Below, one piece after another: positions 7,097 through 57,364 of a DNA stretch of 64,000 bases. The stretch lies in the NCBI GenBank assembly GCA_965225945.1, contig CBDDBZ010000024.1:1-64000 (forward strand), written 5' to 3'. How positions within the stretch are numbered: position 1 is the first letter of the stretch; each line of letters opens with the position of its first letter. The notes below the pieces were generated by a model. The model worked only from the letters and a program-made list of their open reading frames with translations, searched no databases and was not told the origin of the DNA. This stretch comes from Alphaproteobacteria bacterium. Its GTDB lineage: Bacteria; Pseudomonadota; Alphaproteobacteria; GCA-2731375. The translations under genes were made by a program, and so were the position numbers.

Positions 7097-10000
7097 GTGC
7101 GGCTCGGAAGGCTCGATCTGCTGCGTTACGGCCACTTCACCGACAGGTCGATCGAGTTGCCCGTGAATGGACTCGACTTTCATATTGTATTCGGTCCCAA
7201 CGAGGCGGGGAAATCCACAGTGCTCGCGGCAGTAGGCGATCTGCTGTTCGGCATACCGATGCATTCGCCGTACAACTTTCGTCACGACTATTCGAGCATG
7301 CGGATCGGCGCGATTCTGCAAAACGGCGCGGCGGCGATACGAATCGTGCGCCGCAAGGGCAACAAGGACACGTTGCTCGGAACCGACGACGTGCCGATAC
7401 CCGGCGGCGAAAGCGCGTTGCGTCCCTATCTGACGGGGGCTGACCGCGCCTTTTTCGAACGAATGTTCAGCCTGGATCACCTTCGCCTCGCGCAAGGCGG
7501 CCGGGAGATCCTGGAGGCCAAGGACGAGGTTGGGCAGATGCTGTTTTCCGTCGGCGCGGGGATCGGTGGTCTACGCGACCGGTTGAGCGCCCTGAACACG
7601 GAGGCGGACAGTCTATGGGGCAAAAAGAGGGCAGGACGGCGGCTTTATACGAAGGCGGGCGACAAGCTGAAGGAAGCCCAACTGCAACTGCGCGAAGAGA
7701 CCTTCACCGCCAAGCGGTGGCACGATTTGAAGCGGACCCATCAAGCCGCCGAGGAAGCCCATGGGGAGGTCGAGGCGGAGTTCGAAAGGATGTCCGTCGA
7801 GGCCCAACGCCTCGCCCGCGTGCGTCGGATCTATCGCGACGTATTCCGAAAACATGAGCTCGAGACCCGGATCGAGACCTTGGGAAAGGTCGTCTCCCTG
7901 CCGGAGGATGCCGCACGGCTGCTGAGCGATGCCGAACGGAGGGAGGCCGACGCATCGACCCGAATAGAAACCTTGTCGGCTGAGTTGAAACAGGCGGGTG
8001 GCGCGCTCGAAAACTCGACATACGACCAAGAGCTGGTGTTGCGGGCGGACGACATAGGCCAGCTCCATGAGCGGCGGATCGAGATTCGGGGCGAGAAAGC
8101 CGATTTGCCGAAGCGGCAGGCCGAACTCGAGGCGGCGGAAGGCGAACTGCGCGCCCTGGCGAGGGAGCTGGGTTGGAAAGACGAGAAGGGCATCGGTGTG
8201 CTGATCGCCCGTATCGCGCCTCGCGCCGAGGTCGGCGTGGTTCGGTCGCTTCTGGGCCGGCGCGGCGAATTGACGTCGAACGAGACGAGCCGAACCGAGG
8301 CGTTGGAGGAAGCCGAAGCCGAATTGCGGGTACTTGCCGAGCGCCGGAGCGCCATGGAAGAGACGACCGACGTATCTCGCTTGTCGCGGGCATCGAGGAC
8401 GGTGCGGGATCGGGGCGATCTCGCTGGGCGCCTTCGCGCCGCCGGACAGCAGGTGGCGGACGCGCGGGAGCGCGGGGACCGGCTGCTCGCGTCCTTGCAC
8501 CCGGGCATTGCGAGTGAGGTGGCAGCCGTCGAGATGGCGGTGCCGGCGTTCGCCGCGATCGAGAACCACCGTGATCTGGTCGTCGATTCCGAGCGGCGCG
8601 CGCGCGAATTGCGTCAGCGGATCGAGACGGACGAATTGGAGCTCGAGCGCGCGCGCTCGAAGTACGAGCGCACCGCGCGAGAGGAATTCGCCCCCACCTC
8701 CGAGGCGTTGGAAGAAGTGCGGCGTCGTCGCGACGGGATCTGGGAATTGGTGAAGCTGAGCCATATCGAAGGGGTGGCGATCCCCGACGAATTGGCCGCC
8801 GCCCATGACGCGGACCTCGACGATTTGGCCGGGGCTTTCGAGGACGCGGCGCAAGCCGCCGACGAGACGGCCGACAGGCGGTTCGACCGGGCGGAGGCGG
8901 CCGGGCGATTGGCGGAAATGTCTCGGGCCATCGCGGAGCAGGGCGAGCGCCTCGATCAATCGACCCGCCAGGTTGAGAAGCTCGCCCGGGAGGGAGAGTC
9001 GCTGGAGATCACGTGGCGAGAATTTTGGAAACAGACGCCCGTCGAGCCCTCCGAGCCGGAGTCGATGCTCGAATGGTTGCGAATTCGGGGCGAGTTGCTG
9101 GAAACCATCGGCCATCGCGCGGAGGCGTCGAGTGCGCTGGAGATTCTACGCCTCGAAGAGCGGGATGCCAGGGCGCTGCTCGTGGCGGAGCTGACGGCCC
9201 TCCAGGTCGATCCCGCCACCTCGAGGAACCTCGAATTGGCCATGCTCCTGGAGCACGCCACCGACGTCGAGCGTGACCATGTCGCCCAGGCCGAGCGCGC
9301 GGCTCGACTGAAAGAGGCGTCGAGCGAAGCCCGCTCGGACGTGGAGCGGCGTCGGCGCGAACTCGAGCGTGCCGAAAAGGCGTCCTCGACATGGCGGGAG
9401 AAATGGTCGGTGGCGCTGGAGGGTCTCGGATTGGCGGCGGATTTGGCGCCAGAGGCCGTCGAGGCACAGCTCGACGTGATCGACAGGATGCGGGATTCGA
9501 CGAGCCGTATCAACAACTTGCGCCATGATCGGATCGGCAAGATCAACCGGGATGCCGAGGACTTCGAACGCGTGGTCGCGGACCTCGTGGGCGACGTGGC
9601 GAAAGACCTGGGGGGCGGGCACGCCGACGACGCCGTCCTCGAATTGGAGCGACGGCTGGGGGACGCCCAACGTGTTCGAGATCTCGTGGTGGCCAAGAAA
9701 GCGGAAATCGAGCGTTTGGAAGAACAGGTGGCCGCCTTGGAGGAGACGCGCCGCGAGGCACGTGAGTCGGTGGGTCATCTCGAGCATGCGGCCGCCGCCA
9801 CCACGATCGAAGAATTGCGGGAAGCGATCGAGAAATCCGATTCTCTTCGCCGGCTGCAAGACGAGATGAGCGAGACGTCGCGGACGCTCGAGGCTGAAGG
9901 AGATGGCCGATCAGTCGACGCCTTGGTGGAAGAATGCGCCGGAATCGACGTCGATTCTATCGCGGCGAGGGAAGAAACCATCGCCGACACGTTGAAATCG

Positions 10001-10627
10001 CTGCGCGAGCGATTGACCGCGGCGACCGATGCTAGGTCGGTGGCGCGGGAGGCGTTTCAAGCGGTCGGGGGCGGCGATGCCGCCGCGCGTGCCGCGGCGA
10101 TGCGCCAGGAAGCATTTGCGGAACTGGGTGAGGTGGCCAGACGCTATGCGCGCGTCCGGAGCTCGGCGATCCTTCTGCAATGGGCGATTGACCGCTATAT
10201 GGACGAGAAAAAGGGACCGCTTCTCAAGCGGGCGGGAGAGCTCTTCGCCACGATCACGGGCGGATCGTTTATGGAGCTACGTGTCGATTACGACGACCGG
10301 GACAGGGTCCAACTCATCGGCCGGCGCCCCGATGGCACGTTCGTGCCGGTGCTGGGCATGAGTACTGGTACCGAGCATCAGCTCTACTTGGCGCTCCGCG
10401 TGGCGTCGATCGAGGATTACCTCGAACGTGCCGATGCGCTGCCGTTCATTGCGGACGACCTATTCATCGATTTCGACGAGGATCGATCGGCGGCGGGGTT
10501 CGAAGTCCTGGCGCACTTGGCGCAAAGGACGCAGGTCCTCTTTTTTACCCATGATCGCCATCTAGTCGAGATCGCACGCGACAAGCTGGGAAGTTCCCTC
10601 CACGTGACGATCTTATCGGACGGCTGA
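7097..10627 (+). CDS. YhaN-like Rad50/SMC-type ATPase (AAA_27) with long coiled coil
   Basis: Walker A GPNEAGKST, signature MSTGTEHQLYLALR, Walker B FIADD, FFTH; starts 2 nt after the nuclease stop. Confidence 0.9.
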   Translation: MRLGRLDLLRYGHFTDRSIELPVNGLDFHIVFGPNEAGKSTVLAAVGDLLFGIPMHSPYNFRHDYSSMRIGAILQNGAAAIRIVRRKGNKDTLLGTDDVPIPGGESALRPYLTGADRAFFERMFSLDHLRLAQGGREILEAKDEVGQMLFSVGAGIGGLRDRLSALNTEADSLWGKKRAGRRLYTKAGDKLKEAQLQLREETFTAKRWHDLKRTHQAAEEAHGEVEAEFERMSVEAQRLARVRRIYRDVFRKHELETRIETLGKVVSLPEDAARLLSDAERREADASTRIETLSAELKQAGGALENSTYDQELVLRADDIGQLHERRIEIRGEKADLPKRQAELEAAEGELRALARELGWKDEKGIGVLIARIAPRAEVGVVRSLLGRRGELTSNETSRTEALEEAEAELRVLAERRSAMEETTDVSRLSRASRTVRDRGDLAGRLRAAGQQVADARERGDRLLASLHPGIASEVAAVEMAVPAFAAIENHRDLVVDSERRARELRQRIETDELELERARSKYERTAREEFAPTSEALEEVRRRRDGIWELVKLSHIEGVAIPDELAAAHDADLDDLAGAFEDAAQAADETADRRFDRAEAAGRLAEMSRAIAEQGERLDQSTRQVEKLAREGESLEITWREFWKQTPVEPSEPESMLEWLRIRGELLETIGHRAEASSALEILRLEERDARALLVAELTALQVDPATSRNLELAMLLEHATDVERDHVAQAERAARLKEASSEARSDVERRRRELERAEKASSTWREKWSVALEGLGLAADLAPEAVEAQLDVIDRMRDSTSRINNLRHDRIGKINRDAEDFERVVADLVGDVAKDLGGGHADDAVLELERRLGDAQRVRDLVVAKKAEIERLEEQVAALEETRREARESVGHLEHAAAATTIEELREAIEKSDSLRRLQDEMSETSRTLEAEGDGRSVDALVEECAGIDVDSIAAREETIADTLKSLRERLTAATDARSVAREAFQAVGGGDAAARAAAMRQEAFAELGEVARRYARVRSSAILLQWAIDRYMDEKKGPLLKRAGELFATITGGSFMELRVDYDDRDRVQLIGRRPDGTFVPVLGMSTGTEHQLYLALRVASIEDYLERADALPFIADDLFIDFDEDRSAAGFEVLAHLAQRTQVLFFTHDRHLVEIARDKLGSSLHVTILSDG

Positions 10628-10640
10628 GTTCTCCGCCGCT

Positions 10641-11534
10641 CTACCTGGGGCCCAATTGGACGCCCGCCAGATCCTCGTAGAGCTTCACCACCGCGCTGCC
10701 GTCCTGCTTGTTGAGGCCGGCGCCGCGCGCCATCTCGTAGACCTGCTGGGCCAAGTTGCCGAGCAGCAGCACCACCCCCAACTGCTTGGCGAAGGAGGTC
10801 TCCAGATCCATGTCCTTGTAGGTGATGTCGATCGTGCCGCCGGGCGCGAAGTCGCCCTCGATGATCCGGGGCGTCTTGCTCTCGAAGGCGAAGCTGGCGC
10901 CGGTGGAGACGCGGATCACGTCGAACATCTCTTGCGGATCGAGGCCCGCCTTGGCGCCCAGCACCAGCGCCTCGGCGACGGCGACGGTGCCGACCTGGAC
11001 CAGCAGGTTGTTCACCAGCTTCATCGCAAGGCCCTGGCCGACCGGGCCCACATGGAAGAGGTTCGCCGCCATCGCCTCGAAGACCGGCCGACAGGTCTCG
11101 AACACCTCCGCCTCGCCGCCGGCGATGATCGACAATTCGCCCGTCTCGGCCCGAACGGTGCCGCCGCTCACCGGCGCGTCGAGCAAGCGGACGCCGGATT
11201 GCCCGAGGGTTCCGTGCATCCGCTTGGCGGCGAGCGGATCGATGGTCGACATCGACAGCACGATATCGCCTTGCCGCGCGCCCCGCGCGATCCCGTCCTC
11301 GCCGAGGATCACCGCTTCGGCCTGGGCCGTGGTCTCGACCATGACGATCACCTTGCGGGCGGCGCGGGCCACGGCTTCGGGGCTTTCCGCCGCTTCCGCG
11401 CCCAGGGCCACGAGGTGCTGGACCTTGGCGGGATCCAGATCGAGGGCGACGACGGTGAAACCCGCCTTCGCCAAATTGGCCGCCATCGGGCCGCCCATCG
11501 CGCCCAAGCCGATGAATCCGATCTTTTCCGACAT
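10641..11534 (-). CDS. 3-hydroxyisobutyrate dehydrogenase family NAD(P)-dependent oxidoreductase
   Basis: IGFIGLGAMGGPMAANL, DAPVSGG, KLVNN. Confidence 0.9.
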   Translation of the reverse strand: MSEKIGFIGLGAMGGPMAANLAKAGFTVVALDLDPAKVQHLVALGAEAAESPEAVARAARKVIVMVETTAQAEAVILGEDGIARGARQGDIVLSMSTIDPLAAKRMHGTLGQSGVRLLDAPVSGGTVRAETGELSIIAGGEAEVFETCRPVFEAMAANLFHVGPVGQGLAMKLVNNLLVQVGTVAVAEALVLGAKAGLDPQEMFDVIRVSTGASFAFESKTPRIIEGDFAPGGTIDITYKDMDLETSFAKQLGVVLLLGNLAQQVYEMARGAGLNKQDGSAVVKLYEDLAGVQLGPR

Positions 11535-11646
11535 TGCTTCCCTCCACTGATTGCCCGCCTCGGGCGCCCCGACATTGAAGAATCGCGCCCGGACGGCTAT
11601 TGATGGCACCCGATCGTAGCGGAGTGGCGGGGCGGAGGCGGAATTA

Positions 11647-16293
<4,647 letters not shown>

Positions 16294-16373
16294 AGTTGCC
16301 ATTCATGGCTGGCGGGACCAAGTGAGAGGGTCGCCGCGCGGCGTCGGCGGGATAGCAGAGGACCACCCTCGAC

Positions 16374-17816
16374 ATGGGTAAGCCGACGGGGTTTATGGAG
16401 TTCAAACGGCGCGACCGCTCTTACGCGCCGGTCGCCGAGCGGGTGCGTCACTATCGCGAGTTCGTGCTCGAGCTGAGCGAGGAAGAGACCCGTCGACAGG
16501 GGGCCCGCTGCATGGATTGCGGCATCCCCTACTGCCACACCGGCTGTCCGGTGAACAACATCATCCCCGACTGGAACGACCTGGTCTATCGCGGCAACTG
16601 GCGCGACGCGCTCGACGTGCTGCACTCGACCAACAACTTCCCCGAGTTCACCGGGCGCGTCTGCCCGGCGCCTTGCGAGGCGGCCTGCACGCTCAACATC
16701 ACCGAGCAACCGGTCACCATCAAGACCATCGAATGCGCGATCGTCGACAAGGGCTGGCGGGAAGGCTGGATCACGCCCAAGATCGCCAAGCGGCGGACGG
16801 GCAGCAGAGTGGCCGTCATCGGTTCCGGTCCCGCCGGGCTCGCCGCCGCGCAGCAGCTCATCCGCGCCGGTCACGCGGTGACGATCTACGAGAAGAACGC
16901 CAAGCTCGGCGGCCTGTTGCGCTACGGTATCCCGGACTTCAAGCTGGAGAAGCGCTGCATCGACCAGCGCATGGCGCAGATGCGGGCGGAGGGCGTGGAA
17001 TTCCGCTCCAACACCAACGTCGGCGTCGACATCACGGTCGAGGAGATCCTGCAGATTTACGACGCGGTGGTGCTGGCCGGCGGCGCCGAGCATCCCCGCG
17101 ATATGCCGGTGCCGGGCTGCGAGGCCGACGGCGTGCACTTCGCCATGCGCTTCCTCGGGCAGCAGAACCGTCGCGTCTCCGGCGAGCCGCTGGGCGACGA
17201 CCAGCCGCTGGAAGCCGGCGGCAAGCACGTCGTCGTGATCGGCGGCGGCGATACCGGTTCGGACTGCGTCGGCACTTCGATCCGCCAAGGTGCCGCCTCG
17301 GTGACCCTGCTCGAGATTATGCCGAAGCCGCCCGAGGCCGAGGACAAGGCGCTCACCTGGCCGAACTGGCCGATGAAGCTGCGGACCTCCACCTCGCACC
17401 AGGAGGGCTGCGAGCGCGACTGGTCCGTCGCCACCAAGGCGGTGAAGCAGGATGACGGCAAAGTGACGGCGTTGGAGTTGGTCCGCCTCGATTGGCGGGC
17501 GGGGGACGACGGGCGCATGGCGATGCGCGAGATCCCCGGCAGCGGCTTCGAGATCGAGGCCGATCTGGTGCTGCTGGCGATGGGCTTCGTGCACCCGATT
17601 CACGAGGGATTGCTGGAAAGTCTGGGCGTCGAGCTCGACGGGCACGGCAACGTCGCCGCCGATACCGAGGGCTACCAGACCTCGCACGCACGGGTCTTCG
17701 CCGCCGGCGACATGCGCCGCGGCCAGTCCCTGGTGGTCTGGGCGATCCACGAGGGACGGCGCTGCGCTCGGGCCGTCGACACTTACCTCACCGGCTCCAG
17801 CAATCTCCCCGGCTGA
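16374..17816 (+). CDS. gltD: glutamate synthase small subunit
   Basis: [34 protein letters not shown]; follows gltB. Confidence 0.97.
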
Positions 17817-18071
17817 GCGAGGCCGAAGAGCCGCCTCTCGGTCGGGCACCGTCGCCAGGCGCGAAGCCAGCGCGGCGATCCAGCGGCGTATCTCGCGCGG
17901 GTGGCCGTGGGAATATCATGGGCATCGGGATCGATCGACGAGCGGTGGGTCGGCGGGGCAATGTCGACGATCGGGGGTAGACACACCGTTGGGCCGGGGT
18001 GGCCGATTCGATGATTCGTCGCCACAATCGGAAGTGAGAAATCACGATAGATCCTGTACAGAGCGTGCCGC

Positions 18072-21000
18072 TCAGCTTCCGGCTTCAAGTGACGCGAGGT
18101 TCTCCGCAGCGCGGTCGCGCCAACTGACGCTTCCTTGTCCGTCTGCGATCGATATTGCGGCCTGGTAGGCTGCGGCGGCCTCGTCCGTCCGGCCCGCCGC
18201 CTCCAGCACGATGCCGCGCCAACGGTGCATTTCGGGCTCGTAAATCCGCTGTTCCGTGCTTTCGATCAGATCGCGGCTCTGCTCCAGAACCTCGAGGGCC
18301 TTGGTCATATCGCCGTTCAAACAATGGGCCTCGGCGAGGCTCAGTTGCATGAAGGGTATGTGCTGGCATCCTCCCGTCGCGATGAACCCGTCGATCCCGG
18401 CCGCAATCAATGGCAGCCCTGCAGCGGCATTTCCGTTTAGAACCTCCGCAGTTCCCAGGCCCCAGGTGGCGATCTGCTCCCAGAACATACCACCCGTCGT
18501 CCGGGTGTACTCCAACAGGCGCGTAGCGGAAGTGCAGATACGTTCCGAATTGCGGTCGAACGTCGCGAGGAGTGTGGCCCAGGTCAGGGCATAGGGTAGC
18601 GAGTTGGCGTCGGTTCGAATTCGCACAGCCTTTGCTACCGCGTCGGCCGAGCGCGTGAAGGCAGCATCTCTGTAACCGAGTGCCCACTCGAGGTGGGAAA
18701 GCGCCGACGGTGCCGTGGAGACCGGATTGTGCGCAAATCCGAGGGGAATCTCCTGCAAGACGCGCTCGTCGCTTTCCGTGAACCGCTTCAGCAACTCATA
18801 GGCACCGACGAGATCACCCATCAGGGCTCGGGCGCCACCCATCAGTCGAATGCCGACGAGGTCAATCCATGCCAGGCCGGTCTCCTGCGCAACGGCACGG
18901 ACCTGTTCGCCGGATTCGTCCGCCTGCCGACGCTGACCGGTGAGCATCAGTCCGACGTACTGTCCGTACTAGGCAATCACGCGTGCCCCCGCGTCACCCC
19001 GCCGTGTCGCGAGAATAGCGGCCCGCTCGAACGTCGTAATGGCCTGGGGTGCGCCACCGCCGAAGACTCCGAACTGGACCTGGCCGAGCAGCAAGAGGAG
19101 CGACAGTTCCAGTTTTCCGTCATCGCCCCAGTCGCCCATCGTCCGGAGGATCCTCAGAGCATTCGTGCAATGCGCCGTGGCTTCGGGCTGCTCGGATCGC
19201 TGAGCGGCCGCAATGCTGGCCTTGTCCAACCACCGAATGGCGTTTTTCAGATCGTTCCCCAGTTCGAAGTGACGGGCCAGAACCTCGGGTGCGACTTCCG
19301 AGCCATCGCCGGCCGAATGCGCCTCGGCAATCGCGAGGTGAAGGGCCTGCCGGCGCCGGCGCAGCAGGCTCTCGTAGGCGACGTCCTGGATCAGCGTGTG
19401 TTTGAAGGTGTAGACCTCGCGCTCGTCGTGACGGGTACGGAAGATCAGCTGCGAGTCGACTAGTCGGTCGAGAGCTTCGGTCAGATTGCCGCCGTGGCCA
19501 TCGGCCACCCGCGCCAGCAGCTCGCGCCCGAACTCCCGCCCGATCACCGCGCCGATCTGGGCGATCTCCTTGGCTGACCCCAGCCGGTCGAGCCGAGCCA
19601 TCAGCGAGGCCTGGAGCGTGACCGGCACGTCCTCATCAGCGAGGTCGAATCCCGCCTCGGCCATCGCCTTGGTCAGTTCCTCGACGAAAAGCGGTACGCC
19701 GTCGGTGCGCTCGACAATTCTGGCGACGGCCTCGTCTGTTAGGTCCTGCCCGGCGACGTCGCGGACCATCGCGCCGATCTGAGCCCGCGAGAGCCGGGTC
19801 ATGTTGAGGGTCGTGACGTGACCCTGACCCTGGAACGGGTCGGACCATTCCGGGCGGTGGGTTACCAGCATCAGCAAGCGCTGACCGGCCAGTCGCGGCA
19901 CGGTTTCGACGATTAGCTCCTGCGTCGTCGGGTCGATCCAGTGGGCGTCTTCCAGCACGAACAGCACCGGCTCCTCACGTGCCAGCCCGAGAAGCTGGTC
20001 TTGAAGCGCCCTCAGCGTCGCGATGCGCTGTTGCTGCGGTGGCATGTCGAGCGCGCCATAGCGGGTCTCGAAGGGAACGGACAGCAGGGCGGCGATCAGA
20101 GGCGCGGCCTCGCCGATCTCGGGCGTTGCCTGCCGCAGGACGGCCTCGATGCGGTCCAGCTTTGCCTCCACAGGGTCGTCGGCCGCGAGCCCGACGGCAT
20201 GGTCGAATTGCCGGACCACCGGATAGAGAGCCGAGTTCACGTAGTGCGGCGAGCACTGGAAGAGTACCAATCGGTGCGGATCGCCCTCGATCCGGTCCCG
20301 AAAGGTCTGGACGATGCGTGACTTGCCGATCCCCGGCTCGCCCGCGATCAGAACGACCTGGCCTTCGCTGTCCCTCGCCTGCTGCCAGCGATCGAGAAGC
20401 AGCCCGACCTCGTGGGTGCGCCCGGTGAAGGCCGTCAACCGCATGCCGGGCGCCGTGAAGTGGCCCTCGCTCTCGCGCTGGGCTTGCACGGCCCAGGCAT
20501 CGACCGGCGCTTTGAAGCCCTTGAGAGCCTGGGGGCCGAGGAACTCGAGATCGAAGGCCGTGCGCACGAGCGCCCTTGTGATCCGGCCGATCACAACGCC
20601 CCCGGGAGGCGCCACGCTCTGAAGTCGTGCCGCAAGGTTCGGAGTTTCGCCCGTCACCATTCCCTGTTGACCGACGGTCTCGTCGTTCAGGTCGCCCACC
20701 ACGACATGCCCGGTCGCGATCCCGACACGGGCCGCGAGCATTTCCTGAGAGCCCTCGGTTAGCGGAACTCGGCCGACGCCATCGACGGCGTCCAACCCGG
20801 CGCGGACCGCCCGGACGGCCTGATCCTCGCCCGCGGTCGGCCATCCAAAATACGCGATGACCCCATCGCCCAGCCAGTTGGCCACGTATCCGGCGTTCCG
20901 TTCGATAGCCGACGCAACGTCTGCCTGATAGCGCTGCATAAGCGCTCTGAGGTCCTCGGGATCGAGGCGGCCGGACAGCTCCGTCGACCCGACCAGATCG

Positions 21001-21290
21001 ACGAACATCACCGTGAGCTGGCGCCGCTCTGCCGCAGTCGGCGGCTCGCCTGACGATCCCCTGCCGTCAATGGGCTGTCCGCCCGTGACGTCTTCGCCAT
21101 GTGCTTCCAGCGCGCCGAGATTTTGCGCGGCCTTCATGAGGCGTCGCCGCGGCCCGACCGGCAAACCGATCTCCCTCAGATCATCTTCGGTGAGATCTGG
21201 CAGATCCGAGAATTCGACCTCATTCTCGGTAAAGGCTGGGTAGTATCTTTCGAGGCCTAGATGCTCCAGCCAAGTCGCCAAGTCGTTCAT
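18072..21290 (-). pseudogene. SAM - class III adenylate/guanylate cyclase - STAND ATPase - TPR protein, inactivated
   Basis: ERRQLTVMFVDLVGST, GETPNLAARLQ, GEPGIGKS, EDAHW; in-frame TAG at 18969-18971 with the frame continuing to 18072; cassette inserted 2 nt upstream of the ATG. Confidence 0.85.
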
Positions 21291-21308
21291 TCCTTGCCTA
21301 TCCGGTTA

Positions 21309-21410
21309 TCACCCACACCCACTATATGTAGTGTGCACCCATTTTCCTGAGTAAAGCTCGGTGCAGGTCGAAGCGGAGATATCTCCGGCGATGCCGAGCA
21401 GGGACTCGGA
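21309..21410 (-). pseudogene. probable 3' stub of an IS1595-family transposase (also at 55802-55903 and 60431-60532)
   Basis: SLLGIAGDISASTCTELYSGKWVH...GCG* resembles C-termini I recall for IS1595/ISXO2-like transposases; stop lies inside the TIR; not verified by search. Confidence 0.55.
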
Positions 21411-21567
21411 CGGCATTGTAGCGCCTTTTAGGCGACACTTTAGCGTGGTGGAAATCCTAATCATTGAGTCGGATTTGGCAAAACGCCACGTTGCATAAAG
21501 GACCGTCACTTCATTGAAATTTATCTGAAATCGGAGGTGAACGACACCGATGGAATATTCCAGGAAA

Positions 21568-21876
21568 TCAGAGCTTCATTGAATTGTAGGATTCGAGTGC
21601 CGGATTATTCACAAATAGCTCTGTGAACTGGTTTTCAAGTTCGCTCAATACGTCATATGAAGTAAACGGATTGAGGATCACGTTCTTGCGTGTCGCTTCG
21701 TCTTCGCTGCGACTCAAAACGCGCAGGAGACTAACAGGCGCGGACGGGTTCTTCGCAACGATTCGTGCCAGCGCGTCGCTTTCTTCGACTAGTGCCGTCA
21801 ATCGCTCAGACGATGTCGTTTCATCAGCAGCTTCCCGTCTGGCCGTGGGTTTCTTCGTTTTTCCCTTGGTCGCCAC
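21568..21876 (-). CDS. LRV/HEAT-like repeat passenger protein, copy 1
   Basis: VAKNPSAPVSLLRVLS, VILNPFTSYDVLSEL, FVNNPAL repeats; GGGGGA RBS before GTG; identical in three copies. Confidence 0.75.
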   Translation of the reverse strand: MATKGKTKKPTARREAADETTSSERLTALVEESDALARIVAKNPSAPVSLLRVLSRSEDEATRKNVILNPFTSYDVLSELENQFTELFVNNPALESYNSMKL

Positions 21877-22533
21877 CGTTCCGTCCCCCGATGTTAAGTA
21901 CGTGACGTGAATTAAACTCCGGTTCGGTTTTCAGAACAATCAAGAATTAGCCGGATCGCCTCCTCAATGCGCCTGCGCCGGCCCTTGCCTGCAGTCAATG
22001 CGCCTGCGCCGGCCCTTGCCTGCAGTCCAAGGAGACACACTACATATAGTGGGTGTGGGTGATAACCGGATAGGCAAGGTTCATTCACGCCCCCCGGGTT
22101 GGGAGACCGTAGCGCAGCCCTCACGAGCGTGGGAGTCCGACTTGGATCAATTTCTCCATTTAAATTAGAGAGATCTAATGTAACGGGTAAAGTCGAGGGT
22201 ATGCCGGACGTGGTTCGAGGCATCGCTGACATTCGGTCACCTCCCGATGGCGCGAACCGCGTATGCCCTTGGGAGACCCCATTATAGCGCACTCCCCGCC
22301 CGAGGAGATGTCCGCTATCGCGGGCACCTACCATAAGCAACGAGAAAATGACAGTGCGGGGCGCGGAGTGCCACCGCGGCCCTGGGTGGGCCCCATGTGT
22401 CACCGCCGGCGTCCTCGACCGCTGCCGCCCGGATCGGCTCGCGCCAGCGGCTTCCTCGCGATGTTTTCGTTGTCGCCAGCTGTTTTGTCGTTATATAATT
22501 GGTAGTCCAACTATTTCGATACGGACGATTGGG

Positions 22534-30954: not shown

Positions 30955-32126
30955 GGGGTCAGGCACCTTTTCTCAAATGATATTCGGCCGCGTCAACTTC
31001 TGGTCCTCACTCCGTTGCTTCGATGGACAATGGGGAATGAATGAGCCGCCCACCAAGAGGCGATCGGATCTTGTTCACAATGGTTTCGATTCGGTACTTT
31101 GAGTTCCGCTCGACAAATCGTTGAACCCACGGGAGGCGATCTCGAAAGAACACTTGGCTTTCCGCACACCTCACCACCAGCCTGTTGATCTTTATGACCT
31201 CCGAACGTCGGGGCTCCTGAGCGCGGTATCGTGCTGGATGGAAGTGGAAATCAGCCTCCGGTCGGCGGTCGAAATCGGGCCGGATCATCACTGCGATATC
31301 GGGTGCGAGCGGCACAATTCGGTTGAAGACCCTATGATCTTCTGACAACTCAATTGCAATTGGGTAATCGCTTGTAAAGAACGGACTCGCCGCATCCCGT
31401 TTTATAATATATCCCAGTCGAAATTTGCAAAGCTTATGGTTCTCTCAATGAACCCGCTGATGCCCATCGCCTGCGGGAACTTGCCATCGATGTCTATATG
31501 CACCTTTCCCTCATGGAGTAGGTCGCTTAGCGACCCGCCACCCAGGACTTCAGGGGAAGGCGGAAGCATCTGATGTTTGTCCATCATCTCCGCCGTCACT
31601 TCGACTGTAGCCCGTAATGTGCTACTATGAAGGCGCATCCCCCCGGGGGAGCAGGACATCACATACACTATGAATCCGGCTATAGTAGCCACACTATCGG
31701 CATCGATTTCCCCAGACCGAAGCGCTTCCACAGATCGATTGTAGTTTGGCTCAATATACTTGAGCATCTCTTCGATGATGCGAGGGTGTTCGATGTAATT
31801 GTTTGTGCTTCCTTGCTTAACCCGGCAAACGTCCTTCGAGCCACATGGGAAGTACATCAAATCCCTCTTTCGAATCGCGTGCATCTTCCTTCCGTCCATT
31901 TCTGGCGAGTAGAAATTGCGAAGGTGGACTTGCGGTATGTAATGATCCAGCACCACGTGACTCGATCCCTGGTTCGGTTATTGGAGGTACCCCGGTCCTG
32001 AACCAAAGATACTCCGGGATTCGGGGTCGCGTCCTGCATCTTGGATGGGGTTGCGGCGTCGGGGGGCCCGATCTCGAAGTATCGAATTCTTGCCCCGATC
32101 CCGAAAAAGGGGTCAGGCACCTTTTC
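30955..32126 (+). repeat. 18-bp exact direct repeats GGGGTCAGGCACCTTTTC flanking a lower-GC segment
   Basis: copies at 30955-30972 and 32109-32126. Confidence 0.85.
31007..31956 (-). pseudogene. DUF4238 family protein, frameshifted
   Basis: DHYIPQVHLRNF start; FFTSDYP motif reached only after a 1-nt shift near 31400; lower GC. Confidence 0.75.
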
Positions 32127-33112: not shown

Positions 33113-34142
33113 CCTGATTACGCACTTTACTCAGCCGGATTGATGTGGTACAAATCGTGAACATTTGGTGGTTTTACAGGAGATTCACGATGCCACGCAA
33201 CAAGGTTCAGTTCCAGAAGGGGCTCAGCGAGCCGCGTTTTCGTGAGTTGTACGGTAGCGAGGAGCAGTGTCGCGAGGCCCTGTTCCGCTGGCGCTGGCCG
33301 GAGGGGTTCGCCTGCCCCCGATGTGGCGCCACGCGCCATTGCGAGATCGCCGGGCGAAAACTCTACCAATGCGCCGCCTGCCGTCATCAAGTCTCGCTGA
33401 CCGCCGGCACGCTCTTCCACGCGACCAAGCTGGCGCTGACCCTGTGGTTCTCGGCGATCTATCACATGACCCAATCGAAGAAAGGGATCTCCTCCCTCGA
33501 ACTCGGCCGGCGGCTCGGCGTCACCCAGACCACGGCCTGGAAGATCAAGCAGAAACTGATGCAGTCCATGCTCGAGCGCGATGCCAAATTGCCGCTCACC
33601 GGGCGGGTGGAGATGGACGATGCCTACCTCGGCGGCCGGCGTTCCGGGGCCAAGCGCGGCCGGGGCGCGCCGGGCAAGACACCGTTCGTCGCCGCCGTCC
33701 AGACCACGGCGGAGGGCCAGCCCGTGCGCATCAAGCTCCGCCGCGTCAAGGGCTTCCGCAAGAGCGAGATCGCCAAGATGGCCAAGCGCGACCTGAGCCC
33801 TGGGGCGACCGTTTTCAGCGACGGGCTCAACTGCTTCACCGCCGTCACCACGCGGGGCTGTGCGCATCATCCGATATCCACCGGCTCCGGACCCGGGGCC
33901 GTCGCCGTGCCCGCCTTCAAATGGGTCAACACGACCCTCGGCAACCTCAAAAACACCCTGCGCGGTACCTGCCATGCGATCCGACCCAAGCATGTGCCGC
34001 GCTACCTGGCGGCGTTCCAGTACCGATACAACCGCCGCTACCGGCTCGCCGACATGATCGAAGCCCTCGGCCGCGATGCCCTGCGCACGCCGCCCATGCC
34101 ATATCGGCTCCTGAAGTTGGCTGAGGTTAGTGCGTAATCAGG
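33113..34142 (+). mobile_element. IS1595 family insertion sequence (CCTGATT ends)
   Basis: 24-bp imperfect TIR CCTGATTACGCACTnnnCTCAGCC; TSD AAATTGTA at 33105-33112 and 34143-34150. Confidence 0.95.
33190..34137 (+). CDS. IS1595 family transposase
   Basis: Zn ribbon CPRCG..CAAC, VEMDDAYLGG, FSDG, YRYNRR. Confidence 0.95.
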   Translation: MPRNKVQFQKGLSEPRFRELYGSEEQCREALFRWRWPEGFACPRCGATRHCEIAGRKLYQCAACRHQVSLTAGTLFHATKLALTLWFSAIYHMTQSKKGISSLELGRRLGVTQTTAWKIKQKLMQSMLERDAKLPLTGRVEMDDAYLGGRRSGAKRGRGAPGKTPFVAAVQTTAEGQPVRIKLRRVKGFRKSEIAKMAKRDLSPGATVFSDGLNCFTAVTTRGCAHHPISTGSGPGAVAVPAFKWVNTTLGNLKNTLRGTCHAIRPKHVPRYLAAFQYRYNRRYRLADMIEALGRDALRTPPMPYRLLKLAEVSA

Positions 34143-34932
34143 AAATTGTAACACGGGGCGCAAGGGGGCAAGCGAGGCTGATCGTCGCGTGTGACGAGCT
34201 AGTGACGGTGGTCACTCGATCCCAGGCTCGGCGGGCTCCGCCGGCATCCCGGACCTTCCGCCACTCGGCGACGCGCGGGTTCGGGGTCGCGGGTTCGGGG
34301 TCGCGTCTTGCGGGGTTCGGGGTCGCGTCTTGCATCTTGCATGGGGTTGCGGCGTCGGGGGAGCCGGTCTCGAAGTGTCGAATGCTCGCCCCGATCCCGA
34401 ACCACGCCATCGCCCACACCCCGCCGTCGAGCCATGGCGGCGAAACCGCCCGCGCTCGAAGGGCGTGGAACGACGCCATGGTGACGTCGGGACGATCCGC
34501 GGCCCTTCGCCCCCTCGCGCCCTCCACAGCGACCAAAACTCGTCATTTCGGGCCGATTCGGCCTCATTCGTGACGGTTTTTGATGCCCAAATGAGCGCCT
34601 TTTGAACCCCCCGGGCGATGTGCCTCCGGACGTATATTTGACATAATCCGAGACCGGCGCAGCCGTCCCGAGGGCCCGCTCGGCGGCGGGCGGCGGGGCC
34701 CGGCGGGGCGCCCGGGCATCGTGGCGGACGCAGGGCGGGGGCCGGAAACCCCCATCGATTCAATCTCTTCCGCTCCCGCCACCGGCGCCTTGCGGCGCCT
34801 CGCGCGGCACGCCATATAGGAGACATGAGCCACACGCATCCGACGCGTTCGGCGATAGACGTTCGCGCCGATCCCCGGCCGGGCGGCGGGGCCGGTTCGC
34901 GCCGGTTTTCGCGCCGGCGTGGTGAAAAACCA

Positions 34933-40172: not shown

Positions 40173-40517
40173 GCCTCGCTCTCCCTTCCCGCTTTGCCGT
40201 CCCGGCCGGCTGTTCTACCTTCGAGACCCGGGGCGGGACAAGGCGTGGGAACGAAAGCGCTCGCGAACCGTCGATCGAACGCCGCGATCACTGGACGGCG
40301 AGGGCGCGGATCGACTAAGAGTCGACCGACAACCCACGCAGACGATATGTCGGGCCGAAGCGACGATCAGGCGCGGCGTGGAGACGGGCAATGTTGACAC
40401 GGCTAGATTTATTGAACTTCAAGTCTTGGAGACATGCGGATCTGCGCTTCGGCCGCGTTACCGGGCTGTTCGGTCCCAACAGCTCGGGCAAGAGCAGCTT
40501 GCTGCAGTTTCTGTTGA

Positions 40518-40617
40518 TAGCCGGATCGCCTCCTCAATGCGCCTGCGCCGGCCCTTGCCTGCAGTCCAAGGAGACACACTACATATAGTGGGTGTGGGTG
40601 ATAACCGGATAGGCAAG
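40518..40617 (-). mobile_element. 100-bp terminal fragment of the LRV cassette including one full TIR
   Basis: matches the last 100 bp of copies 2 and 3; TIR at 40575-40617. Confidence 0.92.
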
Positions 40618-40687
40618 TATTGCTGACCGGGCTGTTCGGTCCCAACAGCTCGGGCAAGAACAGTTTCTGTTGATGCTGAAATCAGAC

Positions 40688-40831
40688 TAAGAACGCCACC
40701 GACCGGGGATTGGTCCTGGATCTCGGTGGTCCCGACCAGCTCGTCGATCTCGGCACATTTAAGAACGCCACCGACCGGGGATTGGTCCTGGATCTCGGTG
40801 GTCCCGACCAGCTCGTCGATCTCGGCACATT
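40688..40831 (+). repeat. 72-bp exact tandem duplication inside the ATPase gene
   Basis: taagaacgccaccgacc...ctcggcacatt at 40688-40759 and 40760-40831. Confidence 0.92.
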
Positions 40832-55159: not shown

Positions 55160-55785
55160 TCAACTTCCTGGCACAACACCCGCTGGCAACGCAGTGACAT
55201 GTCGTGCGATCGCACGGGGATGAGCGAACCAGATAAGATCGCGCTGCGAATGATGGGCAATGTGCGCGAGCGCGTCGCGGACCAGCTTTAGCCGGAATGG
55301 CTGCCCGACCGTCATGGGGTGCATCGCAACCGCGCAGACGAGAGGCCGCTCGGTGCATTGTTCGATCATTTCATCGAACTGGTCGACGATCATATCAGCG
55401 AATTCACGTGCGCCCTGATGCCGAAACAGAATTGCGATTGAGTCGTTGACCTCCAACGGATATGGGACAGACAGGATCCGACCGCTACGCGTCTTCATCC
55501 AGAACGGTTGATCGTCGGCGCACCAATCCATGATGTACTCGTAGCCGGCCTCCTGAAGGAGATCGATGGTAACGTCACTATTGGACATCCCGGGGCCCAT
55601 CCATCCGCGTGGAGGGTTGCCCTCATGACGTTCGATGGTCTCCGTGACGGAGGCGATCATTCGCGCCTCGTCCTCGGCCCACATCGAGCCTTGATGCTCA
55701 GACTGGGTGCGACCATGACCGATCACTTCATCGCCGCGCGCGCGAACACGTTCCATGATCTCGGGACACTACTCGTAGATCAGAC
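55160..55785 (-). pseudogene. 3' half of a second PuuE-like deacetylase split by the composite transposon
   Basis: continues NASSLI from 61170-61451 as YE*CPEIMERVRARGDE; GHGRT, MHPMTVGQPFR; in-frame TAG at 55769-55771. Confidence 0.9.
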
Positions 55786-56540
55786 CTTGCCTATCCGGTT
55801 ATCACCCACACCCACTATATGTAGTGTGCACCCATTTTCCTGAGTAAAGCTCGGTGCAGGTCGAAGCGGAGATATCTCCGGCGATGCCGAGCAGGGACTC
55901 GGACGGCATTGTAGCGCCTTTTAGGCGACACTTTAGCGTGGTGGAAATCCTAATCATTGAGTCGGATTTGGCAAAACGCCACGTTGCATAAAGGACCGTC
56001 ACTTCATTGAAATTTATCTGAAATCGGAGGTGAACGACACCGATGGAATATTCCAGGAAATCAGAGCTTCATTGAATTGTAGGATTCGAGTGCCGGATTA
56101 TTCACAAATAGCTCTGTGAACTGGTTTTCAAGTTCGCTCAATACGTCATATGAAGTAAACGGATTGAGGATCACGTTCTTGCGTGTCGCTTCGTCTTCGC
56201 TGCGACTCAAAACGCGCAGGAGACTAACAGGCGCGGACGGGTTCTTCGCAACGATTCGTGCCAGCGCGTCGCTTTCTTCGACTAGTGCCGTCAATCGCTC
56301 AGACGATGTCGTTTCATCAGCAGCTTCCCGTCTGGCCGTGGGTTTCTTCGTTTTTCCCTTGGTCGCCACCGTTCCGTCCCCCGATGTTAAGTACGTGACG
56401 TGAATTAAACTCCGGTTCGGTTTTCAGAACAATCAAGAATTAGCCGGATCGCCTCCTCAATGCGCCTGCGCCGGCCCTTGCCTGCAGTCCAAGGAGACAC
56501 ACTACATATAGTGGGTGTGGGTGATAACCGGATAGGCAAG
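55786..56540 (-). mobile_element. LRV cassette copy 2 (755 bp)
   Basis: 43-bp TIRs at 55786-55828 and 56498-56540. Confidence 0.95.
56061..56369 (-). CDS. LRV passenger protein, copy 2
   Basis: translation identical to 21568-21876. Confidence 0.75.
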   Translation of the reverse strand: MATKGKTKKPTARREAADETTSSERLTALVEESDALARIVAKNPSAPVSLLRVLSRSEDEATRKNVILNPFTSYDVLSELENQFTELFVNNPALESYNSMKL

Positions 56541-56541
56541 C

Positions 56542-57364
56542 GTGAACCATCAAGCCGACGCCACGACGCCGACCGCGGGCGGCGCCAAGGTCCGCTACAT
56601 CAACGCGGAATGGCGGAACCGGGAGGACAGCCCGCGCATCGGCTCACGCGAGAGCCGGCGCGCCATGACCTCGTTCCAGGACGTGCTGGTGCACGACGTC
56701 AGGGCCGAATTCCAGGCGGGCCAGATCGATCTCGACCGCTCGGGCTTCACGCTGTGCGAGAACCTCACCGAATGCGGCGACTTCCGCGACGACGCGGTGA
56801 TCGAGGCGCAATACTATCCCGAGATGATCGACCTCGTCCGGCGGATGAGCGGCGCCGACCACGTCTTCGTCAGAGCGCACCTCGTACGCACCGAAATACC
56901 CACCGATTTCAACGACGGCTACGCGCGCTTCGTCCACTGCGACTTACAACATCCGGCTGATCGAGGAATTGGCGCATGAATTGCTGGCGCGATACGACGT
57001 CGAGGCGAAGCCGAACTGGACTTACGCCTGGTACAACACCTGGCAGCCCTTCGATCATCAGGTGCAGAAAAATCCGCTCGCCGTGATCGACTGGCAAAGC
57101 CTGCCCCTCGAGGACGTGATCGACTACTATTATACTGGCCGCGGCCTCGACAGCCTGACCGCGGCGCCCGTCTACAGCCCCGACCATCGGTTCGATCCCG
57201 GGGATGGAGACGACCGAGACACTGGTGATCAAGCAGTCGACGCGCGGCCCGGCCGGGCGGCGTATTGCCCGCACACTTCCTTCGATCTGCCCGGCAGCGA
57301 CGACTTGTTGCCCCGGCGCAGCATCGAAACTCGGTTCCTCGCCGTCTTCGAGGACGCCGCTTAA
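56542..57364 (+). pseudogene. CmcJ/NvfI-like oxidoreductase, frameshifted
   Basis: LDRSGF, YYPE, FVHCD, NPLAVID, PHTSF, RRSIETR; shift near 56944 and a compensating pair near 57195-57237. Confidence 0.75.

Follow-up and report, generated by a model that had tools for sequence, protein, structure and literature searches.

We describe a 755-bp mobile insertion cassette that carries one gene, for a 102-amino acid (aa) protein with an LRV_2 domain, and that is dispersed in 63 full-length copies through an alphaproteobacterial genome (G000; 6.27 Mb, 39 contigs). It was recognized in a 64,000-bp stretch of that genome, contig C24:1-64000, referred to here as the window. As judged from its sequence, the cassette is very probably a non-autonomous derivative of an insertion sequence (IS) of the IS1595 family, ISAcr1 type, and is mobilized in trans, most likely by a resident IS that we call IS_A.

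Three full copies lie in the window, all on the forward strand (copy 1, 21293-22078; copy 2, 55786-56540; copy 3, 60415-61169), together with a 100-bp right-end piece on the same strand (40518-40617), whose match to the repeat spans unit positions 656-755 and includes the right terminal inverted repeat (TIR). Within each full copy the two TIRs are 43 nt long and 100% complementary (21293-21335 and 22036-22078 in copy 1), and the cassette end reads CTTGCCTATC. The 102-aa open reading frame (ORF) runs on the minus strand and is unbroken in all three copies. In copy 1, it occupies 21568-21876, starts with GTG, and is identified both as an ORF and by a Pfam match; in copies 2 and 3, it lies at 56061-56369 and 60690-60998. 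A transposase gene is absent from the cassette. Its sole trace is a 31-codon relic of the C-terminus of an IS1595-type transposase (21312-21404, minus strand, within a 66-aa ORF at 21309-21509), which is identical to residues 308-338 of the IS_A transposase at 22 of 31 positions (71%; E = 4e-12). Copies 2 and 3 are identical, at 755 bp each, and copy 2 serves as the reference. Copy 1 measures 786 bp because of an internal 31-bp tandem duplication on the forward strand, found by repeat comparison (21948-22009, as 21948-21978 and 21979-22009). The G+C content of the cassette is 51%, against 66% for the genome. A scan of the cassette for promoters and terminators returned one promoter-like site, against 0.7 expected, and none upstream of the LRV gene. 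A first-pass annotation of the window had listed the three copies and the fragment at 40518, the perfect 43-bp TIRs, and an intact LRV-repeat ORF with no transposase, and all of these stand at the positions it gave. The length of 755 bp that it assigned to the element at 21293-22078 has to be corrected to 786 bp.

A BLAST search of the whole genome recovered the 63 full-length copies and many fragments. Perfect 8-bp target duplications flank 48 of the 63 copies, with one mismatch in 4 more and two or more mismatches in 11. Exactly 755 bp is the length of 44 copies. Identity to the reference is at least 99.5% in 46 copies (22 of them identical to it), 99-99.5% in 4, 95-99% in 10, and below 95% in 3. 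The 102-aa ORF is intact in 53 copies, 45 of which encode an identical protein; in old copies, at 80-85% identity, the ORF is broken. A palindromic preference, approximately G-W-W-Y-R-W-W-C, emerges from the 48 target sites that were reconstructed: 33 of them have G at position 1, and 35 have C at position 8. The element had been called recently amplified. This is true of the burst in this genome, where 46 of the 63 copies reach 99.5% identity or more with the reference, but the cassette lineage itself is old and widespread.

That these copies are assembly artefacts or segmental duplications is extremely improbable. The 48 copies with perfect 8-bp duplications sit in different flanks, each with a duplication of its own; no full or partial BLAST match of the cassette is located at a contig end; and the assembly lacks the junctions that misassembly would require. 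In a genome of another family (G218, 5 of 5) and on a metagenome contig (L074), full copies likewise have duplications of their own. In favor of an artefact, two DNA runs other than the source show the empty site of the composite transposon described below, and not its flank-to-cassette junctions. Segmental duplication may account for a few copies that share identical wider flanks (e.g., on G000:C3 and C31, and on C1 and C14), so that independent insertions number somewhat fewer than 63.

The likely partner, IS_A, is a 1,105-bp IS (e.g., G000:C14:58222-59326) with one 339-aa ORF, and about ten copies encode the full protein at 97-100% identity. The transposase contains a DDE_Tnp_IS1595 domain (PF12762; E = 3.6e-37, 128.2 bits, cut-off 27) and an N-terminal zinc ribbon (PF12760; residues 23-69, E = 3.5e-13), and it matches the NCBIfam model for the IS1595 family (NF033547; E = 7.6e-57). 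With this DDE domain, the zinc ribbon, a single gene of about 1 kb, and an 8-bp duplication, IS_A belongs to the IS1595 family, for which the relevant part of PMC8101967 gives an 8-bp duplication, a single transposase, a DDE domain, and a zinc finger in all groups except IS1016.

IS_A and the cassette share their termini. The first 15 bases of both IS_A ends are those of the cassette ends, and the IS_A left end is identical to the cassette TIR at 30 of 32 positions. Over its first 126 bp, the cassette has 77% identity to the right end of IS_A, and this segment matches both ends of longer IS_A-containing repeats. A 13-base core of the end, TGCCTATCCGGTT, has 182 hits in G000, of which 142 are the exact cassette TIR over 34 nt; the others comprise 21 IS_A right ends, 8 IS_A left ends, 10 one-off variants of the cassette end, and 1 unrelated site. 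Thus, IS_A is the sole transposase-coding element in the assembly with cassette termini. Among the 11 IS_A units listed, 6 have perfect 8-bp duplications, 3 are off by one base, and 2 have none. These duplications (e.g., GTTCGATC, GATCGAAT, and GACTGATC) resemble the target pattern of the cassette. At G000:C26:1253-3136, the order is GTTCGATC, cassette, GTTCGATC, IS_A, GTTCGATC; the two elements inserted successively at the very same 8-bp target.

Family ends, an 8-bp duplication at 48 of 63 copies, and the transposase relic make the cassette a derivative of the IS1595 family, and the comparison with IS_A supports the view that it is an ISAcr1-type element that lost its transposase. Loss of the transposase by an IS1595-family element and mobilization in trans had both been proposed in the first-pass annotation. 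The origin is borne out by the ends, duplication, and target pattern in common with IS_A and by the relic, and mobilization in trans gains support from the common termini, the 8-bp duplication, and the similar targets of IS_A. As for a longer element with the same TIRs and a DDE transposase, IS_A shares the terminal 15 bases, but no autonomous parent with the exact 43-bp ends was found in G000, at related loci, or on nine metagenome contigs. We propose that the cassette retains what the transposase requires in cis, namely, its two perfect 43-bp inverted ends, and that the DDE transposase of co-resident IS_A would cut and insert it. Staggered cuts of 8 bp at sites approximating G-W-W-Y-R-W-W-C would then give rise to the 8-bp duplications. 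Two cassette copies can also carry the DNA between them, as in the 5,384-bp composite.

A different IS1595-family transposase could in principle move the cassette, and the most obvious candidate is that of IS_B, a second abundant IS of the family (about 15 copies; transposase 36% identical to that of IS_A). The genome holds many IS1595-family transposases, and IS_B has the inner end motif CCTATCyGGTTA in common with the cassette. We nevertheless consider this very unlikely. IS_B ends begin with CGTCCCTATC and not CTTGCCTATC; its duplications, read off the alignment (TTATCGAT, TAAGGTAG, TTGCCTAG, and AAGACTAT), lack the G...C pattern of the cassette; it has inserted into the cassette TIR rather than sharing it; and the terminal 15 bases are common to IS_A only. 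Two such insertions were observed at the ATATGTAG site, one in a left TIR and one in a right TIR (G000:C4:70085-71927 and C32:286358-288088).

Several points weigh against IS_A as the mover. The assignment rests on shared ends and co-occurrence, and co-occurrence could reflect shared transfer vehicles, among related genomes that are not independent of each other. Beyond base 15-32, the two ends of IS_A diverge from one another as well as from the cassette TIR, and G000 encodes many other IS1595-family transposases. One genome (G183) has IS_A and no cassette, which fits the model and adds no support to it. On balance, we still regard trans-mobilization by IS_A as very probable.

IS_A itself occurs in unusual forms. 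Five larger units of 1,631-1,658 bp (G000:C14:57696-59326, C1:44070-45700, C15:7573-9203, C33:95821-97478, and C38:177697-179354) combine the full IS with 526 bp of its own right end, copied in inverted orientation, such that both outer ends are right ends. A perfect 8-bp duplication of the whole unit flanks two of the five, and in the other three it is shifted by one base. It looks as if right-end/right-end pairs of IS_A can transpose. A 1,121-bp variant, in which an inverted right end replaces the left end and the first 14 transposase codons, has 132-bp perfect inverted ends and perfect 8-bp duplications in both of its copies (G000:C19:59701-60821 and C34:188810-189930).

Copies 2 and 3, with the 3.9 kb between them, form a 5,384-bp composite transposon (55786-61169). 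In the window, only copy 1 has an individual 8-bp duplication, GTTCATTC, located by flank comparison at 21285-21292 and 22079-22086. The left and right flanks read GATCAGAC and CGTGAACC at copy 2, and CTTGGACG and GATCAGAC at copy 3. Since GATCAGAC stands outside the pair (55778-55785 and 61170-61177, by flank comparison) and the inner flanks show no duplication, the duplication belongs to the pair, with copy 2 as the left arm and copy 3 as the right arm of one composite. The cargo (56541-60414; 3,874 bp) is a copy of chromosomal DNA and comprises a thiamine pyrophosphate (TPP)-enzyme gene, an Oxidoreduct_C gene, and two unnamed ORFs. A locus 99.5% identical to it lies at G000:C34:100947-105008; there the sequence is uninterrupted on both sides and free of the cassette. 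The cargo has insertions or deletions at 56944, 57195, 57236, and 58614, all of which shift the reading frame, so that its genes are broken, and which are absent from the donor locus and from metagenome contigs. In addition, 186 bp near the start of the donor locus are tandemly duplicated, a feature missing from the cargo.

The empty site of the composite is also visible. One gene, related to the adjoining 302-aa gene, is split in two between the outer flanks of copies 2 and 3, and its frame is continuous over the junction when a single GATCAGAC is restored. In a genome of the same genus (G002), gtaGATCAGACtact occurs once, at 98% identity, and the host gene is intact. Contigs from public runs were compared with the stretch for two DNA runs (X2 and X6, from two studies) and two RNA libraries (X15 and X16). 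In X2 and X6, one contig each joins 55777 to 61170, skipping 5,392 bases, with 8 bases at the joint that fit either side. Two arms with a cargo, one outer duplication, an empty site, and a cassette-free donor locus thus characterize a composite transposon. The first-pass annotation had read the three copies as simple insertions, each with an 8-bp duplication. The copies are real, and copy 1 has its duplication, but the other two are the arms of the composite and have only the outer duplication that they share.

The pair of transposase-less cassettes would accordingly have moved chromosomal DNA as a unit. Instead of by single transposition, the composite could have arisen when a circular unit of cassette plus cargo recombined homologously into a resident copy, and the sequence fits both routes alike. 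The gene that was split may have begun to decay after its disruption. At 55750-55760 of the window, the split gene has an in-frame TAG where G002 has TAC (E-stop-C versus E-Y-C). An occurrence of CGTCCAAG at G000:C39:5162, which matches the inner flank of copy 3, was dismissed as chance, because the cassette copy there has its own duplication and different wider flanks. Elsewhere in the genome, two inverted cassette copies 401 bp apart (G000:C33:252803-254713) have a common outer 8-mer, GTTGATTC, and unlike inner flanks; they are probably a second, small composite. Immediately to the right of the composite in the window is a gene for a 373-aa DDE_Tnp_1 (IS4-type) transposase (61944-63065).

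The other window copies have affected their surroundings as well. Copy 1 inserted 2 bp upstream of the ATG of a 773-aa SAM/adenylate-cyclase/AAA_16 gene (18969-21290), and its left target duplication includes that ATG (CAT on the forward strand); the gene is thereby severed from its native upstream region. The cassette fragment lies within the scrambled start of an AAA-ATPase-like gene (40460-40831), bracketed by host direct repeats of about 41 bp (95% identical) and followed by a perfect 72-bp tandem duplication (40688-40831). Positions 33145-34137 of the window hold a further transposase frame of the IS1595 family, with about 28% identity to residues 14-300 of IS_A (tblastn, E = 9.5e-29) and bracketed by 91-bp direct repeats that are 90% alike (32015-32105 and 34311-34401).

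The cassette is found in several families of Alphaproteobacteria. Eight genomes, G000 among them, match it at E ≤ 0.001 (41 relatives searched), and near-identical pieces are present in a genome of the genus of G000 (G002), in one of its family (G017), and in one of another family (G029). When 301 genomes of the class were sampled evenly, the LRV gene (profile, E ≤ 1e-10) turned up in three, G000, G029, and G218, and IS_A (E ≤ 1e-50) in four, the same three and G183. IS_A is 99-100% identical in G029, G218, and G017; a remnant persists in G002, and none was found in G001. Both elements are present in G002, G017, G029, and G218, and G001 holds neither. From G218, which belongs to another family, five full 755-bp copies were fetched, 98.8-99.6% identical to the reference and all with perfect 8-bp duplications. 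Two further genomes (G041 and G042) contain short LRV cassettes together with 1,153-bp ISs whose transposases are 80-81% identical to that of IS_A and whose ends agree with those of the local cassette in the first ~17 bases. No genome was found to hold the cassette without IS_A or such an 80-81% identical relative.

Environmental sequences extend this distribution. Exact 43-nt ends occur on nine metagenome contigs, three of which hold full 755-type copies (95-97.5% identical, ORFs intact); one of these copies, on L074, has the perfect duplication GTTTGGAC. Public runs that contain the window stretch include marine sediment and sponge metagenomes. Among viral contigs there was no exact match to the 43-nt cassette end, and none of the 11 matching plasmid records in PLSDB covers at least 80% of the cassette; these records matched the IS ends only. 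Over window positions 55300-61700, short cassette contigs of X2 and X6 reach word depths of about 9,000-20,000, against about 5-50 for the single-copy flanks. These depths are sums over contigs and organisms and not copy numbers; they suggest that the cassette is very abundant in these communities, perhaps in several organisms. In the RNA-library contigs (X15 and X16), cassette word depth is about 90-240, against 0-5 for the flanks. Since this ratio approximates the copy number, the libraries may contain DNA, and contigs cannot show transcripts, we make no claim of expression, and we attach no meaning to stretches that these two runs leave uncovered.

One element with related ends has no LRV gene. 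It spans about 353 bp at G017:C52:7583-7935 and consists of the left ~105 bp (84%) and right ~64 bp (83%) of the cassette. Many similar ends lie at contig ends of the same genome. The ~353-bp element is probably a true MITE (miniature inverted-repeat transposable element) of the same IS clade.

The protein encoded by the cassette belongs to Pfam family LRV_2 (PF25591; E = 2.6e-8, 34.1 bits, cut-off 27), and its score against the classical LRV family (PF01816; 19.4 bits) is below the cut-off of 21.6. It has 234 relatives at E ≤ 0.001, nearly all of 102 aa, with 74-99% identity among the 120 listed. Many of them are located on contigs of 500-1,000 bp, as expected, because repeats break assemblies. 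Short cassette relatives of 519-545 bp consist of a TIR, about 120 bp, the LRV gene, about 20 bp, and a TIR, without the transposase relic. Their contigs are labelled as alphaproteobacterial metagenome-assembled genomes, with one labelled Dehalococcoidia. They occur in 1-3 copies per genome, and three of the six examined have perfect 8-bp duplications, with a match at 7 of 8 positions at a fourth. More distant cyanobacterial relatives (43-56% identical) are N-terminal modules of multi-LRV proteins of 300-700 aa. In the protein atlas, the cluster closest to the protein is one of LRV_2 type and probably contains the protein itself; some small LRV clusters there carry the label Uroviricota, which we treat as a lead only.

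The LRV gene is kept by selection along the cassette lineage, whereas resident copies decay neutrally. The ratio of nonsynonymous to synonymous substitution rates (dN/dS) is 0.17-0.34 in all 10 pairs among five lineages, at a dS of 0.13-1.3. Among 60 copies in G000, by comparison, we counted 50 distinct substitutions, 22 in the ORF (3 synonymous, 18 non-synonymous, and 1 stop) and 28 outside it. Substitution density is alike in the two parts (0.072 per site in the ORF versus 0.062 outside), and fewer of the ORF changes are synonymous than the share of 0.24 expected at random. We see here the pattern of a transposable-element gene whose importance is to the propagating lineage and not to resident copies.

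As the sole intact conserved gene of the element, under purifying selection, the LRV gene might encode a new kind of transposase or recombinase, which would make the cassette autonomous. This is highly improbable. The protein is a helical repeat with a basic disordered tail and has no nuclease or recombinase match in Pfam, NCBIfam, PADLOC, or PHROGs (no rows from PADLOC or NCBIfam and one chance-level row from PHROGs, E = 0.34). Furthermore, the ends, the 8-bp duplication, and the relic indicate a DDE enzyme of the IS1595 type, and the cassette is found only alongside IS_A or its 80-81% identical relative. Searching for longer proteins with the LRV module gave 12 hits, mostly single-member read-through fusions; none contained PF12762, and there was no LRV-transposase fusion. 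A full-text literature search, whose scope did not extend to the ISfinder catalogue, found no pairing of LRV with transposable elements and no match for ISAcr1, and the papers found on IS1595 and MITEs describe no such cassette in their titles or abstracts.

Given selection at the level of the lineage and the tie to one IS clade, we predicted the complex of the LRV protein with the IS_A transposase. Three runs gave interaction prediction scores from aligned errors (ipSAE) of 0.72, 0.03, and 0.72, and the best of three controls reached 0.01. Of 80 solved complexes, 58 attain the mark used for such predictions, as do 2 of 110 mismatched pairs. In our prediction, the partner predicted local distance difference test (pLDDT) was at least 79, and at least 16% of contacts were common to the runs. 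According to the model, LRV residues 64-102 (and 42-49) touch transposase residues 298-308 (and 194-197, 261-272, and 34-40). An AlphaFold model of the LRV protein alone is all-helical with a disordered basic N-terminal tail. A fold search of this model against the PDB gave no match at E ≤ 0.001 (best E = 2.6), the LRV sequence profile gave two chance-level rows (E = 0.68 and 0.92), and the transposase profile gave none at E ≤ 0.01. By sequence, neither chain has a solved relative in the PDB, so the passing score is not the memory of a known complex.

These models raise the possibility, which we hold at a little short of an even balance, that the LRV protein binds IS_A-type transposases and biases or tunes transposition in favor of the cassette, whether as helper or as brake. 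More specifically, and with slightly less confidence, the LRV_2 protein may hijack or tune the transposase of an ISAcr1-type host IS by docking on the C-terminal region of that enzyme (~298-308). Such docking would steer the enzyme to cassette ends or damp the IS, and the cassette could, again tentatively, be seen as a hyperparasite with a dedicated effector. A factor of this kind would explain the selection along the lineage, the tie to one IS clade, and the ~5 to 1 excess of the cassette over its helper.

The same cassette could be mobilized in trans while its LRV gene is a plain passenger, useful to the host, neutral, or otherwise kept, that does not touch the transposase. We regard this as a credible possibility that falls short of probable. 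Known mobile insertion cassettes hold unrelated passengers, as the part of PMC3913671 on these elements indicates, and the LRV_2 domain is also found at the N-terminus of long cyanobacterial LRV proteins without an IS context. Several results likewise count against binding. The LRV fold model is mediocre (pLDDT 64.7), one of the three complex runs failed (0.03), and our own shallow alignments were used, which makes the calibration counts only rough. Conservation is not enriched at the predicted interface, with 5 of 16 invariant LRV columns among its 30 residues where about 4.7 are expected (hand count). The cyanobacterial relatives have no visible link to ISs, and the existence of LRV-less derivatives with related ends, such as the ~353-bp element of G017, means that the gene is not needed for movement as such. 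What a plain passenger accounts for less readily is that the gene has stayed tied to the ends of one IS clade over a dS of 0.5-1.3, at a dN/dS of 0.17-0.34, across cassette forms of 520-755 bp, and that neutral decay in resident copies is what one expects if the propagating lineage, and not the host, is under selection. The predicted complex also passed while its controls gave 0.00-0.01. Binding of the transposase by the LRV protein thus remains, to us, a tentative proposal.

Non-autonomous elements in Bacteria are usually viewed as passive, either as empty ends (MITEs) or as ends that trap genes (mobile insertion cassettes, MICs). The cassette family described here instead maintains one small gene under purifying selection and a tie to one IS1595 clade. 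It has spread at ~99% identity between different families of Alphaproteobacteria (G000, G029, and G218), and in G000 it has produced a burst of 63 copies, broken genes, and built a composite transposon from chromosomal DNA. If the predicted contact is true, this would be a simple, testable case of a parasite of ISs with a factor of its own, directed against or for its helper, and it would provide a first functional handle on the uncharacterized LRV_2 domain. If the contact is not real, the cassette remains a new and well-documented IS1595-family MIC that can usefully mark recent gene flow among marine and sediment Alphaproteobacteria. Overall, the element is a mobile insertion cassette of a kind already known, and its accessory gene is unusual and possibly functional.

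The closest named IS that we found is ISAcr1, from plasmids of Acidiphilium cryptum JF-5. Its first 15 bases, CTTGCCTATCCGGTT, are those of the cassette on both ends, and like the cassette, it duplicates 8 bp (ATATATTG at the copy examined). NCBI labels its transposase 'IS1595-like element ISAcr1 family transposase', and this enzyme shares 81.7% identity with the IS_A transposase. In contrast to the cassette, ISAcr1 is autonomous, with about 1,080 bp and one transposase gene, whereas the cassette has 755 bp, a 31-codon relic, and the LRV_2 gene. The cassette end CTTGCCTATC fits nnnGcnTATC, the end motif described for the ISSod11 subgroup, and placement in this subgroup is presumed from the motif. 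Within the IS1595 family, the ISPna2+, ISNwi1+, and ISNha5 groups carry extra genes, unrelated to transposition, between their ends, and they keep the transposase and are autonomous. These passenger-carrying groups are reportedly set out in the ISfinder family description and by Siguier et al. in 2009. The cassette differs from them in having no transposase.

Like the cassette, MICs such as MIC231 of Bacillus cereus and the qnrD and qnrS2 mic elements have inverted repeats around a non-transposase gene and duplicate their target. The IS231 partner of MIC231 is of IS4 type, a different IS family from that of the cassette. The passengers of the MIC231, qnrD, and qnrS2 elements are enzymes or resistance genes, whereas that of the cassette is an LRV_2 gene. 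In the part of PMC3913671 that treats them, MICs are defined by inverted repeats, the lack of a transposase, and a target duplication, and MIC231A1 is moved in trans by the IS231A transposase. The cassette is a MIC in this sense, with inverted repeats, no transposase gene, a target duplication, and an LRV_2 gene unrelated to transposases. For these MICs, we know of no report of dozens of copies per genome, long-term purifying selection on the passenger, or a predicted contact with the transposase.

MITEs such as Correia elements and MITEAba12 resemble the cassette in being non-autonomous, with TIRs and target duplications, amplified beyond their parent IS, and moved in trans, according to portions of PMC10969869 and PMC6382973. 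MITEs are 50-500 bp long and non-coding, as stated in a portion of PMC10969869. The cassette is not one of them: at 755 bp, 41% of it is a selected 102-aa gene, and its short relatives of 519-545 bp are also coding. Transposase-less pairs that move other DNA, as the composite does, are represented by the MITE-flanked integrons of Acinetobacter and by Tn3-derived inverted-repeat miniature elements (TIMEs), as noted in PMC10969869 and PMC4133298. The difference is that the arms here are of the IS1595 type and the cargo is a decaying copy of the host's chromosomal genes; beside those systems, the composite has both its empty site and its donor locus visible.

A cassette with a hijacking factor would follow a logic comparable to that of phage satellites, which redirect helper proteins. 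Beyond known MICs, the cassette family has one small gene that is selected across its whole breadth and a lasting tie to ISAcr1-type ISs. It further combines near-identical copies in different families, a burst of 63 copies, a composite with two transposase-less arms, and a predicted contact between its passenger and the transposase.

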